Positions 21,705-32,000 are shown, counted from the stretch's first letter. The stretch is 32,000 nt of DNA from Schaalia odontolytica (GCF_005696695.1 NZ_CP040006.1:1620001-1652000); one strand, 5' to 3'. Numbers and translations are program-made. The notes: a model not told the origin generated them from the letters alone.

Positions 21705-24700
21705 TCAGCCGTTCCACTGGCCGTTCTCGGCGAAGTAGTACCACTTCCAGCCGATCCAGTGCCCACCCGTGTACATCGCACCCGAGTCGGTACTCAGGTA
21801 GTACCAGAAGCCACCATCCTTCAGCCAACCGGTCGTCAACGCGCCACTGGAGTGCATGAAGTACCAGGACGAGCCGTCCTTGACCCATCCGGTCGCCATC
21901 GCGCCACTACCGGGCGTCAGGTAGTACCAGGTCGGACCATCAAGCAGCCAACCGGTCACCATCCGACCCGTCGCAGGATCCAGGTAGTACCAGGAAGAGC
22001 CATCCTTCACCCAGCCACTCGCCTGGGCACCCGAAGCGTCGTGGTAGAACCACGAACCAGCCTCACTCACCCAACCGGTACGCATGTAGCCGCGAGAATC
22101 AAAGCGGTAGATCGAGTTGCCGATCTGCAGCGTCTGGCTCACCGGGTAGGTCCCGTCGGCGTAGCGGTACCACCAGCCGAGAGAGTCGCTCACCCACTGG
22201 CCACCCTGCGGGGCAGGTGCCGGGGTCGGATCCGGGGAAGGCTCCGGCGCGGGCGCAGGATCCGGGGTCGGAGCGGGCGTCGGATCACCCTGGAGGCGCA
22301 CCTCCTGCTTGGCGGGGTTGACGCCCCAGTCCCAGGCGAAGAGGTACGGGGTCACCGGGGCCTCGTCCGTGCGTCCCTGCTGCGCCCAGGCGGCCTTCAG
22401 CTCCGAGACGGGCACGTCGAAGTGGTAGCGGTGCGTGCCATCGGCGAGGATCTCACCATCGTCCTCGACGAGCTTGCGGTAGTACCACGTGCCATCGGCG
22501 TCCTCGTGGAAGTCGATGCCGGCCACGGGCGAGGCGTCGGTGACGTCGAAGGACACCGTGCGGGCATCGCCCTCACCGCTCACCGCCAGGTTGGAGATGA
22601 CGGGGGCCTGCGTGTCCAGCGTGAACTCGTAGCTCATCTGGTGCTTGCGCGAGGACGGACCATCCGTCGCGGCCTCAATCGTCAGCGTGTAGGCGCCGTC
22701 GGCCAGCTCGTTGCCGGACTGGTCATAGCCGTCGAAGAAGGGTTCCTCACCGGCGAACTCACCCGGCTTCGTCCAGCCGGTCTCGAGGTCGTAGAGGGAC
22801 TTGCGCACGCGGTTGATCGTATAGGAACGCACGGACTCGCCCGCGGAGTTGCGGTAGGTGAGAGTCATCGACGGAACGGAGCGCAGCATGCCGGTCATCG
22901 GCGCGATCTTGTCGGGGGCACCCGCCCACTTGGCGCGCGAGGTGATAAGGCGCTGCGTGTTGATCGTGGTGACCAGGTTCGAGTCCTGCTTGTCCGACAG
23001 CGGGTTCAGCGCTCCCAGCGGGATAGACGAGTGGGAGTTCACCAGCGCGGAACGGTAGACGTGCACAGGCGTCGTCTCGTTGTCCGACCACTTGCCGTCG
23101 AAGACGTTCGGGGCTCCCCACGAGCCGTAGAAGCCCAGGTAGGGCACGGTCAGGCTCGGGGTCCCATCCTTGCTCGTGAAGGTCACGGCGCCGTCGATGA
23201 AGGTGCCCTTCGGGGCGTTCTCCGACGCAAAGGCCGCGAACTCGGACTCGGGGGTCACGGTGACGGTCACGGTGGCGTTCGACATCGCGGGGACCGTGAT
23301 CTGCTGGGCGTCCCCGGCCTCGGCAACGCCGTCACCGGAGAAGGTCAGCGAGATGCCCGCGCCCGCCCAGTTCTGCGAGTGCTCGAGGAAGAGGCCCTCC
23401 TCGACCATCTCGGAGAGCGCCTGGCCGCCGAGTGTGTAGGTGTGGGCGGCATCAGAGAGGTTGGTCAGCTGCACCTGGAAGGTCCAGCCCTTCGTCCCGT
23501 CGCCGAGGTCGGCCTTGGGTCGGGAGGGGTCGGCGGCGCCCACCACGGTCGGGTAGACGGTCGCGGTGGTCGCTGCGAGCGCGTCGACGGCGCCCGCGCC
23601 GACCCTGCGCGGCGAGTAGTAGGTGCCGTCGCCCAGCTCGACGTCGACGAGCGGGTGGGCGGTGCCCATGAGGAGGTTGGTGACGACCGCGTTCTTCTGC
23701 TCGGCGCTCATTCCAGAGAAGGCAGGATCGTTCGCGAGGCGCTGGCGCACGAGGGCACTGATGCCCGCGACCTGCGGGGATGCCATCGAGGTGCCCGACA
23801 GGCGCTGATACTCGTTGCCGAGGTAGGCCGACATGATGTCGCCGCCGGGGGCAGCGATCTCAGGCTTGAGGGTCAGGTCGGGGGCCACGCCCCACGCCGA
23901 AAACTCCGAGGCCGTCGGGTTGTTCGAGGCCAGCACGATGCCGGAGTGCGTGACAGTCACGGTGACGTCGGCTCCGTTGGCGCTAGCCAGGGCCTCGCGG
24001 ATCGCCTCGCCGTCACGCTTGGTGATGGTCACCGTCGGCATCGACGTCGTCGAGCCGATGATCGCCTGGTAGGGCGTGCCGGCCTCGTCCGTGTCAGCGA
24101 CCATGAGGGCTGCAGGAGCCGGCGAAAGGGCCGTCAGGTTGCGCGCCTTGAGTTCCTCGGTCATGGCCGAGCCATCGCGGGAGTCGGTGCCGCCCTTGTC
24201 CTCGAGGACGATCACGCCGGAGAGGTCGGTGCCCGCGTACTGCTCGAGCTGGCCGGTGCCGCCAGCGCCGGCGTCGACGATGCGGTAGGTCTTCTCAGGA
24301 ACGTCGCGCAGGCCGCGCACAGCCGCACCCTGGCCGTCGAGGGCGGTGCGGTAGGCGATCTTGCGATCGCCCAGGCTCACGTAGGACAGGGCCTCCTGGT
24401 TGTCGACGGAGGCGACGGCCAGGGTGGACTTGTAGGAGGCGGGTTCGCCGAGCGTGCCCGTGTCGGGGTCGGTCGCGAACGGCTTGTTCTGGCCGGAGTT
24501 GTTGCCATAGGCGTTGGAGAAGGCGTTGCCGCCCGCCGCGTTGACGGTGATGCCAGCGGCGGCGAGCTTCTCATACACGCCGGCGAATACGCTGCCCGCG
24601 TCGCTGCTCATGCCGGAGTCGTCACCCAGGGACAGGTTGATGACGTCGGGCTTGATGACGAGCGCGTCATCGAGGGCCGCCAGCAGCGCGCTGTCAGGCA

Positions 24701-30186: not shown

Positions 30187-32000
30187 TCAGCGGATCAACT
30201 TGCCGTTGTCGGCGAATCGGTAGTACTTCCACACGATCCACAGGCGTCCGGTCGCCATCTGGCCGCTGCCGGGCTTGAGGTAGTACCAGGAGCCCTCCTC
30301 GTAGTGCCATCCGGTCTTCATCTTCCCGTTGGTGGGGTTCAGGTAGTACCAGTGCGAACCGTCTTCGACCCATCCCGTGGCCATCTGGCCACTTCCGGGG
30401 GTCAGGTAGTACCAGGAGACGCCGTCAAGGACCCAGCCGGTGGCCTGCGCGCCGGACAGCGCGTGGTAGTACCAGGCGCCCCGCTCGAAGACCCAGCCCG
30501 TGCGCATGTAGCCGTCCGCGTCGAATCGGTAGACCTGGCCGTCGATGGTCTTGGCCGTGTTCGAGGGGTAGGTGCCGTCCGCGTAGCGGTACCACCAGCC
30601 GCGAGCGCCCCACGTCCACGTGCCCTGAGCGGGAGCGGAGTCGGAGCCGGCCTTGACGGTCACGGTCGCCGAGGTGACGACGTGGGGATCCTGGCGCACG
30701 TCGAGGCGCAGGGTGGCGTCGGCGCTGGTCGGGGTCCAGGTGTAGGAGGCGGTGGATGCGCTCTCATCCGAGCTGCCCTGCATCGATTCCCAGTCCTGGA
30801 GAACCGTCTCCGTGCCGTCGCCGCTGATCTGCACGACGCGCATCTGGCGTCCGCCCAGAGTGCCGCCCTGCGCGGAGACGTTCACGGTCGTCGGCGTACC
30901 CACCGAGGTGGTGAGCGTGTATCCGGGTCCGGCTTCGGTGATTCCGTCGCCTGACACTGCGACCTGCGGGCGGGTGTACTCGAAGAGGTTGGCCGTGTTG
31001 TAGCCGGCGTCCTTCATCGCGGTTTCGGTGAGGGTCCACGCCTTCGACCCCTTGGGGGCGGCGACGTAGATTTCGGTGCCGTCCTTGAGGTCCTGTGCCA
31101 TGTCGGCCGCGAGCTTGATCTCCTGCACGGTCGAGGGCAGGACCAGGACGCGGGGCGTGTCGAACCAGAAGGTGAAGCTGGTCATCCCCTCGCCGAAGTA
31201 GGCGCTGTCGGGGCGGCCGTTGGTGGCCTTGCCCTCGTAGTAGAACTCGCCGTTGTTGCCGCCGCGCACGATGAGGTGGCGCGGGGTGGCGGTGTCTCGC
31301 GGTGTCATCCACAGTTCCGTGACCTGCGAGCCCAGTTCAATCGTGTCCAGGCCGTTGTTGACGAGGCCGCGGGCGACCGTCACCGAGTCGGGGATGACGA
31401 GATCGGTGAGGTTCGCGTCGCCTTCAAAGGCACCGTAGCCGATAGTCGTCAGCCCCTCGGGCAGGACGACGCGACGCAGGAACGTATTGTGCGCGAAAGC
31501 GGTGTCGGCGATAGCGACCGTGCCGTCAGGAACCGTCACGTCAGTGTCCGTCTTCGTGGGAAGGTACAGGACCAGGGTGCGGCCCGCGTTGCCCTTGCTG
31601 TACAGGACGCCGTCTTCGACGGTGTACATCGAGTTGGCGGGGGCGACGCTGAGGGAGGCGAGGTTGTTCGCGGCCACGAATGCGGATTCACCGATGGAGG
31701 TCAGGCCCGAGCCCAGATGCACAGACCGGAGCGCAGCGTTCCCAGCGAACGCGCCCTTACCGATCGAGGTTACCGAGTCGGGCAACGACACAGAGACGAG
31801 AGCCGAACCGTCGAAGGCATAGTCGCCGACCTCGGCCAGGCGATTCAGGTCGGGACGGAAATTCACCTCGGCGAGCGCCTTGTCGTAGCGGAAGGCACTA
31901 TCCGGCAGCATCGTGGCACCACCCAGATCAACGCGCTCCAGCTTGGACATGTACCAGAAGGCCGTGTCATCCATGGACTCGAACCCGTCAGGCAGGGTCA
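30187..32000 (-). CDS. Surface protein with BspA-type leucine-rich repeats (LRR_5), an Ig-like spacer and a C-terminal cell-wall-binding repeat anchor; 5' end outside window
   Basis: The frame stays open upstream of the ORF-track Met (31974) to the window edge (…TLPDGFESMDDTAFW… continues the repeat pattern). It has repeating ~23-aa units of the LRR_5 type (IGDYAFDGSALVSVSLPDSVTSIGKGAFAGNAALRSVHLGSGLTSIGESAF...). The C-terminal 146 aa are homologous to the repeat modules of both protease genes. Confidence 0.8.
   Translation of the reverse strand, partial: TLPDGFESMDDTAFWYMSKLERVDLGGATMLPDSAFRYDKALAEVNFRPDLNRLAEVGDYAFDGSALVSVSLPDSVTSIGKGAFAGNAALRSVHLGSGLTSIGESAFVAANNLASLSVAPANSMYTVEDGVLYSKGNAGRTLVLYLPTKTDTDVTVPDGTVAIADTAFAHNTFLRRVVLPEGLTTIGYGAFEGDANLTDLVIPDSVTVARGLVNNGLDTIELGSQVTELWMTPRDTATPRHLIVRGGNNGEFYYEGKATNGRPDSAYFGEGMTSFTFWFDTPRVLVLPSTVQEIKLAADMAQDLKDGTEIYVAAPKGSKAWTLTETAMKDAGYNTANLFEYTRPQVAVSGDGITEAGPGYTLTTSVGTPTTVNVSAQGGTLGGRQMRVVQISGDGTETVLQDWESMQGSSDESASTASYTWTPTSADATLRLDVRQDPHVVTSATVTVKAGSDSAPAQGTWTWGARGWWYRYADGTYPSNTAKTIDGQVYRFDADGYMRTGWVFERGAWYYHALSGAQATGWVLDGVSWYYLTPGSGQMATGWVEDGSHWYYLNPTNGKMKTGWHYEEGSWYYLKPGSGQMATGRLWIVWKYYRFADNGKLIR
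30190..30627 (-). repeat. Cell-wall-binding repeat module, copy 3
   Basis: It encodes 146 aa: QGTWTWGARGWWYRYADGTYP...GWVLDGVSWYYLTPGSGQMATGWVEDGSHWYYLNPTNGKMKTGWHYEEGSWYYL... The order and number of repeats match copy 2. Confidence 0.85.

Follow-up and report, generated by a model that had tools for sequence, protein, structure and literature searches.

Three consecutive minus-strand genes in a 32,000-nucleotide stretch of the Schaalia odontolytica genome (hereafter the window; positions 1620001-1652000 of a single-contig, 2.36 Mb genome of 65.9% GC) encode an S8 subtilase, a disabled S8 paralogue and a BspA-type leucine-rich repeat (LRR) protein, each of which ends in the same kind of C-terminal repeat module. 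We label these genes G1, G2 and G3, and we label as G4 a fourth gene past the window edge that belongs to the same array. The module is of the pneumococcal choline-binding type, with a predicted solenoid hairpin fold. The overall explanation that we favor, and consider probably correct, is that these are Sec-exported multidomain surface proteins held non-covalently by their C-terminal choline-binding modules, and that the array arose by gene duplication and domain loss. The original prediction for this stretch had described three minus-strand genes. All three open reading frames exist as described, and their predicted domain identities (S8 protease, pseudo-protease and BspA-type LRR protein) were borne out by Pfam, NCBIfam and motif checks, but the array counts four genes, with G4 lying just outside the window. 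The genes and the order of their parts are as follows.

G1: 21705..25634, minus strand; S8 subtilase of the C5a-peptidase/cell-envelope-proteinase type; 1309 aa from the ATG at 25634 (longest open reading frame to 25769); signal peptide, S8 domain with insert, fn3_5, Ig-like domains, Pro-rich linker, choline-binding module.
G2: 26078..29992, minus strand; full-length disabled S8 paralogue; 1304 aa from the ATG at 29992 (longest open reading frame to 30163); signal peptide, S8-like domain, fn3_5, Big_2 (26579-26785), choline-binding module.
G3: 30187..32000, cut by the window edge, minus strand; BspA-type LRR surface protein; 872 aa, with its start at genome position 1652805 (window-equivalent 32805); signal peptide, LRR_5 repeats, Ig-like region, choline-binding module.
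G4: genome 1653218-1659742 (window-equivalent 33218-39742); 2174 aa; S8, fn3_5, Big_2, LRR_5, choline-binding module.

The lengths of homologues and the presence of recognizable signal peptides point to 25634 for G1 and 29992 for G2 as the likely starts. In the array proteins, signal peptides with a PAAFA-type site can be seen, and they are related to one another. Homologues of G4 of 2178-2214 aa are frequent in public data.

C-terminal modules of the array proteins

The modules inside the window occupy the following positions.

G1 module: 21708..22208, minus strand; 167 aa, eight beta-hairpin repeats of 20 aa; a Pro-rich linker lies before it at 22209-22292.
G2 module: 26081..26521, minus strand; 147 aa, seven repeats.
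G3 module: 30190..30627, minus strand; 146 aa, seven repeats.

These coordinates, which are those originally predicted, translate exactly to the C-terminal residues of the three proteins, and the modules align from end to end. We searched the three C-termini with hidden Markov models of the two repeat families proposed for them, and all three score above the gathering thresholds of both. Matches to Choline_bind_3 (PF19127) have E values of 3e-24, 6e-23 and 1.5e-23 in G1, G2 and G3, respectively (81-85 bits, cut-off 27), and matches to Choline_bind_1 (PF01473) have E values of 1e-19, 4e-15 and 1.5e-13 (51-70 bits, cut-off 20.5). The best NCBIfam matches of the tails are the choline-binding parts of PspA/PspC, with E values from 1e-26 to 1e-42, while the glucan repeat TIGR04035 reaches just 7e-6. 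When 28 modules are aligned, the GW, WYY and G.M.TGW columns are invariant or nearly so, and each module contains 4-5 canonical repeats. In the LytA and CbpF structures, the GW/WYY/M pattern corresponds to choline pockets between successive hairpins. A degenerate terminal repeat of the form RLxIxW, thought to be common to all three proteins, is present in G2 and G3, but G1 and G4 have GHWIGWKWYYF at this position.

Among solved structures, the sequence matches of the module are CbpJ (E 8e-38), Pce, Cpl-1, CbpF and LytA. Clostridial toxins stand high when sequence scores are summed because each toxin carries many repeats. An AlphaFold2 model of the G1 module, built from the 28-module alignment, has a pLDDT of 96.2 and consists of eight beta-hairpins. 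With this predicted structure as the query, Foldseek returns CbpJ (6jyx) as the best match, with a TMq of 0.87, a root-mean-square deviation (rmsd) of 1.4 Å and 35% identity, followed by CbpF (TMq 0.83) and then Pce; CbpJ, CbpF and Pce superpose on the model at TMq 0.70-0.87. The combined repetitive oligopeptides (CROPs) of clostridial toxins and the repeats of glucansucrases mostly fall at TMq 0.45-0.66 and 15-25% identity. Thus, Pfam, NCBIfam, AlphaFold2 and Foldseek all agree with the earlier assignment of a CW_binding_1-type C-terminal module. The tails resemble those of the pneumococcal choline-binding proteins LytA, LytB, Pce/CbpE, CbpF, CbpJ, PspA and PspC in their C-terminal tandem 20-aa GW..WYY..G.M repeats with a predicted hairpin superhelix and, in G1, in the Pro-rich linker that precedes the module.

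Inspection of the C-termini of G1-G3 revealed no LP.TG motif and no hydrophobic tail, as the original prediction had stated, and in each open reading frame the stop codon comes immediately behind the final repeat. The proteins end at the same residue in orthologues from at least eight other genomes; for this reason, and because no motif was found, we rejected the idea that an LPXTG signal is hidden beyond a frameshift.

Phosphocholine pathway genes and the repertoire of repeat proteins

The ligand of such a module had been regarded as not obvious in a high-GC actinobacterium. A survey of the genome for the cassette and for lic genes, as originally suggested, supplies a candidate, since it revealed a complete lic phosphocholine-decoration locus and a Pce-type esterase. 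The lic locus lies at 689.99-694.64 kb and comprises a licC-licA fusion, an EamA-family (LicB-like) transporter and two LicD proteins; its neighbors are a glycosyltransferase cluster and a DUF2142 membrane protein. The fusion (genome 692806-694635, minus strand) is a 609-aa protein with a MarR-like winged helix, a LicC-like nucleotidyltransferase and a LicA-like choline-kinase/APH domain, and the joining of a regulator-like domain to choline-activating enzymes is unusual. A homologue of the phosphocholine esterase Pce/CbpE is encoded at genome 237216-239330 and carries about 12 choline-binding repeats; it matches 2bib with an E value of 8.5e-80, and its catalytic module matches the catalytic-only chain 1wra with an E value of 2e-44. 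Two LCP ligases are also encoded in the genome. Judged by its genes, therefore, this organism has the phosphocholine pathway that would be expected of a producer of choline-binding proteins.

The survey also showed that the cassette, first framed as a property of three genes, is far more widespread. Choline-binding repeats occur in 18 open reading frames of the genome and form a C-terminal module in 15 of them. The proteins concerned include eight subtilases, a pullulanase, a fucosidase, a sialidase-like protein, an amidase-glucosaminidase, an NlpC/P60 enzyme, an Excalibur protein and the Pce homologue, among others. They coexist with approximately 20-25 LAxTG/LPxTG proteins and two sortases.

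To place this in a wider context, we examined 151 Actinomycetaceae genomes from 40 genera for repeats and LicD. Repeats are found in 20 of these genomes, in 7 genera. LicD is present in every one of the 20 repeat-positive genomes, compared with 17 of the 131 repeat-negative genomes. Within three genera, repeats and LicD are carried by exactly the same genomes, and in several genera the repeat genes lie no more than 10-20 kb from licD.

Streptococcus pneumoniae offers the closest parallel. Both genomes encode a family of hydrolases that bear the repeats, with amidase, glucosaminidase and Pce homologues among its members, and the licA, licB, licC and licD functions of the pneumococcal lic1/lic2 pathway are, by genes, all present here. 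The differences are that the host here is a high-GC actinobacterium, that licC and licA are fused and preceded by an N-terminal winged-helix domain, and that the module carries large S8 proteases and LRR proteins, kinds of protein that streptococci anchor through LPXTG. Phosphocholine and choline-binding proteins have also been reported in Gemella, and Lic-1 genes in Actinomyces viscosus and A. gerencseriae (PMC7136413, which discusses phosphocholine teichoic-acid systems, and PMC10434233). These are different species from the present Schaalia, but they too are examples of lic genes and CW_binding_1 proteins in commensals of the mouth or airway, on evidence that is genomic or antibody-based only. 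For the Lic-1 enzymes of A. viscosus and A. gerencseriae, the evidence for phosphocholine is from antibodies only (PMC10434233).

Weighing of self-anchoring against other functions of the module

Taken together, these observations suggest how the anchoring system would work. The products of the lic locus (a choline transporter, a fused kinase/cytidylyltransferase and two LicD transferases) would decorate a glycopolymer of the wall with phosphocholine, which would be bound by aromatic pockets between successive beta-hairpins of the modules. Our analysis shows the domains, the predicted fold, the lic and Pce genes, their co-occurrence pattern with respect to LicD, and the patterns of selection and conversion; we infer choline binding, wall location and the substrates of the proteases.

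Several observations weigh against this interpretation. The repeat superfamily also includes carbohydrate binders, clostridial toxin repeats top the summed sequence scores, and the repeats of TcsH reach a TMq of 0.83 on the module model. The 17 LicD-positive genomes without repeats show that LicD can occur alone, and enzymes of the LicD family are able to transfer other phospho-alcohols. Finally, because the sampled genomes are related and hence not independent, we treat the co-occurrence of LicD and repeats as support rather than as a test statistic.

The best of the alternatives, which we nonetheless consider improbable, is that the modules bind phosphocholine chiefly in trans, on the teichoic acids of mitis-group streptococci or on host molecules, so that the proteins would act as released or coaggregation factors and would not be anchored to the producer's wall. 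Such a role would be compatible with the predicted choline-binding fold and with LRR and protease domains suited to interaction with a partner or host, and oral streptococci do carry phosphocholine teichoic acids. However, a complete lic locus and a Pce homologue are encoded in the organism's own genome, and the module sits at the C-terminus of most of its repeat proteins (15/18), as it does in self-anchored pneumococcal proteins. Binding to self and binding in trans are, moreover, not mutually exclusive.

It is slightly less likely still that the repeats are a lectin for glucans or for host or bacterial glycans, comparable to the glucansucrase domains and CROPs, and serve in adhesion or targeting instead of self-anchoring. 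The module does belong to the same repeat superfamily as glucan and glycan binders, TcdA and TcsH lead the summed sequence matches, the TcsH CROPs fit the model well, there is the weak match to TIGR04035, and dental plaque is a habitat rich in glucans. Four lines of evidence argue against this function. The best matches per length and by structure are pneumococcal choline binders, at 30-35% identity and rmsd values of 1.4-2.2 Å, compared with 15-25% identity for the toxin and glucansucrase repeats; the GW/WYY/M pattern typical of choline sites is found in every regular repeat; the same module is carried by autolysins and by the Pce homologue, which must act on their own wall; and the repeats track LicD across genomes. 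We therefore retain non-covalent anchoring to the cell's own phosphocholine as the preferred function of the modules.

The proteases, the pseudo-protease and the LRR protein

Given the difference in predicted activity between G1 and G2, we compared their S8 domains residue by residue at the catalytic sites. G1 matches Pfam Peptidase_S8 with an E value of 1e-40, and an fn3_5 domain (PF06280) follows the catalytic domain in both proteins (E 2e-14 in G1 and 2e-16 in G2). The best PDB matches of G1 are C5a peptidase (E 1e-54) and SpyCEP, within a range of 1e-54 to 1e-45, and the C5a peptidase chains cover residues 235-891. G1 keeps the catalytic motifs IDSG, HGTH and GTSMASP, the last at 23775-23795, and GTSMA[ST]P is kept in all 120 of the G1 homologues listed. 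In G2, by contrast, the catalytic Ser is replaced by Ala (codon 28235-28237), so that the motif reads GTAEASA, and the oxyanion Asn is replaced by Asp within APAGD at 28949-28963. Thus, the Asp-His-Ser triad and the oxyanion Asn are complete in G1 and incomplete in G2, which upholds the earlier description of G2 as a pseudo-protease. In all seven of the genome's other S8 paralogues the Ser motif is GTSMA[ST]P, and an oxyanion AAGN motif occurs in several of them.

The loss of the active site in G2 appears to be old. The Ser is kept in none of the 120 G2 homologues listed, many of which also have Arg in place of His. We considered whether G2 might be a decaying pseudogene and rejected this, since full-length orthologues exist down to approximately 55% identity, none of the listed homologues has the Ser, and the ratio of nonsynonymous to synonymous divergence (dN/dS) between orthologues is 0.11-0.21.

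Membership in two described S8 families was also assessed. The NCBIfam model NF040553, for the LPXTG-anchored serine peptidases SGO_0316/SGO_0317, yields scores of 255 (G1) and 196 bits against a cut-off of 1400, and with such a score G1 is not a member of that family. With the CspC-type model NF040808 (cut-off 675 bits), G2 scores 21 bits and G1 scores 45. G2 nevertheless resembles CspC of Clostridioides difficile in being a full-length S8 fold that lacks the catalytic Ser, is under purifying selection and adjoins active paralogues. The resemblance is one of principle only, because the similarity is below threshold (at most 45 bits) and because G2 is predicted to be a surface-anchored multidomain protein, whereas CspC is a spore germinant receptor. 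G1, for its part, shares with ScpA/ScpB, SpyCEP and the lactococcal cell-envelope proteinases an S8 domain with an inserted domain followed by fn3_5 in a large, secreted surface protease; unlike them, it lacks LPXTG and has a choline-binding module as its anchor.

The LRR_5 family (PF13306, cut-off 27.7) matches G3 with 90 bits for the part inside the window and with 189 bits (E 3e-56) for the full protein. Like BspA of Tannerella forsythia and the streptococcal proteins HupY/LrrG, G3 is a secreted surface protein of an oral bacterium with Pfam LRR_5 repeats. It differs from these proteins in having a choline-binding module as its anchor and in matching the HupY model far under its cut-off, and in G4 the LRR block is fused behind a protease. 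From their sequences, G1 is most likely an active subtilase like C5a peptidase and the cell-envelope proteinases, G2 a conserved dead subtilase, G3 a BspA-like LRR adhesin, and G4 a subtilase-Big_2-LRR fusion.

One speculative extension, to which we attach little weight, is that G2, the LRR protein and the active subtilases form a joint assembly on one phosphocholine polymer, in which G2 and the LRR protein would capture a host protein or the epibiont TM7x and the proteases would process it. If this were true, choline anchoring would organize an interaction platform that sets host or epibiont specificity.

Origin of the array and divergence of its modules

The N-terminal parts of the array proteins had been taken to be unrelated or divergent, but G4 contains all of their blocks together. 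G1 is 57% identical in amino acid sequence to G4 over G4 residues 1-1118, G2 is 48% identical over residues 1-1199, and G3 is 45% identical over residues 1257-2173. Because G4 holds every block of G1-G3, the N-terminal parts are rearrangements of one set of blocks. When the locus is compared across strains, as had been proposed, the order G4-G3-G2-G1 is found intact in no fewer than eight species-level genomes of the S. odontolytica complex; in more distant species it is rearranged or expanded, and the fused G4 form is already present in the more distant species sampled. Orthologues of all four genes, the dead protease included, show dN/dS values of 0.09-0.27, indicating purifying selection. 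Chimeras also occur in other strains. Six proteins combine an LRR body of the G3 type (aa 247-685) with a body of the G2 type (aa 42-389 plus everything from aa 627 onward); in these chimeric genes, the choline-binding module that belongs to G3 and the central part of the S8 domain of G2 are absent, and some have no C-terminal module at all. The Schaalia array also appears, at 85-96% identity, in public records under the names Sanguibacter keddieii, Xylanimonas cellulosilytica and "uncultured Xylanimonas", and these records look mislabelled. The array would thus have arisen by tandem duplication and domain loss within one set of parts, namely a signal peptide, an S8-fn3 body, Big_2, LRR and the choline-binding module.

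The shared module DNA was also predicted to provide substrates for recombination or gene conversion, and we compared the divergence of modules and gene bodies in the present genome. Overall, the shared module DNA is 70-83% identical, and the longest exact common words are 18-30 nt. G1 and G4 are 82-83.5% identical in the module and 71% in the gene body; G2 and G3 are 73-75% identical in the module and have bodies that are not homologous; and the other pairs are approximately 70% identical in the module and 65-72% in the bodies where these can be aligned. Between paralogues, the modules have dS values of 0.66-1.08 and dN/dS values of 0.14-0.42, and the corresponding values for the bodies are 0.63-0.82 and 0.53-0.64. 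Since module dS equals body dS and dN alone is lower, these values point to common descent combined with constraint rather than to recent conversion. The argument from equal age is weakened by the possibility that synonymous sites in a 66% GC genome are near saturation. No conversion tract was detected between G1 and G4 in this genome, in which the longest identical run is 30 nt (shuffle P 0.29).

The relatives present a different picture. Identical tracts join the G1 and G4 modules in four of their genomes, with lengths of 487 and 333 nt in two metagenome bins and of 83 and 77 nt in two isolates (shuffle P 0.0016 and 0.023), and the converted G1/G4 copies cluster by genome in a tree. The two longest tracts come from the metagenome bins, where repeat mis-assembly is possible. 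In addition, dS of the G1 modules is raised between some orthologues. Between G2 and G3, no convincing tract was found in eight genomes, in which the modules are 71-74% identical and the longest runs are 17-29 nt (shuffle P 0.017-0.46); two of the eight reach P 0.017 and 0.047 with runs of merely 29 and 25 nt. The predicted role of the shared DNA as a recombination substrate thus holds for relatives (G1/G4 tracts of 77-487 nt) but not for the present genome, which has no detectable tract.

It is accordingly very unlikely that the similarity of the tails in this genome reflects a recently spread or converted cassette (a mobile module or concerted evolution) rather than common descent: the excess of module over body identity between G1 and G4, the tracts in relatives with their clustering by genome, and the raised dS of some G1 modules would favor such a history, but equal dS in modules and bodies with only dN lower, the 30-nt limit on identical runs, the short common words and the G2-G3 modules without convincing tracts led us to reject it. 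In the scenario of common descent, the module would be inherited with each gene copy, and its similarity would be kept by purifying selection stronger than that on the bodies, while in some relatives gene conversion would occasionally homogenize the G1 and G4 modules.

A 206-nt non-coding element and neighboring genes

A 206-nt element is found downstream of two of the array genes.

Copy 1: 25787..25992, minus strand; 86 nt 3' of the G2 stop, ending in a GC-rich terminator hairpin.
Copy 2: 21401..21606, minus strand; 99 nt 3' of the G1 stop.

With 84% identity, the two copies are closer to each other than the neighboring coding modules are. The copy downstream of G2 is 93-97% conserved in more than 15 related genomes, and the element also lies 3' of repeat-ending genes in more distant species. 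An Rfam scan of 21200-32000, which includes the element, gave no match. The element may be an RNA derived from the 3' untranslated region or a stand-alone RNA.

Other features near the array were noted. An M81 (MlrC-like) metallopeptidase and an Opp-type oligopeptide transporter (binding protein, two permeases and a fused double ATPase) are encoded at 1497-10163 of the window, approximately 11 kb from the protease array. This neighborhood would fit a nutritional route of proteolysis, but arabinose and sugar-transport genes lie in between. At 19342-21282 (plus strand), a 646-aa open reading frame encodes a xanthine/uracil-family permease fused to an OHCU-decarboxylase domain. Beginning 16 kb past the window, the segments at genome 1668015-1679088 and 1703045-1714119 form an 11,075-bp direct segmental duplication of 99.99% identity, which contains a 412-aa open reading frame for a LAKTG sortase substrate and whose origin may lie in a mobile element, in recent duplication or in a problem of the assembly.

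Relation to published work and significance

We found no description of the protease/pseudo-protease/LRR array in the searchable literature, and literature searches for choline-binding proteins in Schaalia or Actinomyces gave passing mentions only. One such passage, in PMC6166536 (citing He et al. 2015), states that earlier transcriptomics showed choline-binding-protein genes of A. odontolyticus XH001 to be induced by the epibiont TM7x. The array is an ordinary feature for the genus, and its anchoring system is well known, although the phylum in which it occurs here is a less familiar setting for it; annotation already shows the system and papers mention it. No new concept emerges from these results, and public databases already list the proteins under generic names. 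What our analysis adds is a genomic answer to the question of the ligand, the recognition of G4 and of a common building set, a long-lived pseudo-protease, and module conversion that occurred in relatives yet not recently in this genome.

The array is thus a clean case of tandem duplication and domain loss, with a long-lived pseudo-enzyme and with sporadic conversion limited to the anchor module. In this abundant oral actinobacterium, much of the surface enzyme set appears to rely on a single non-covalent anchor and on host-derived choline; that set includes eight subtilases as well as glycosidases and autolysins. As in pneumococcus, surface display would then be open to testing and switching in the laboratory, whether by washing with choline, by adding analogues of choline or by mutating lic genes, which would be of relevance to Schaalia as a host of Saccharibacteria epibionts.

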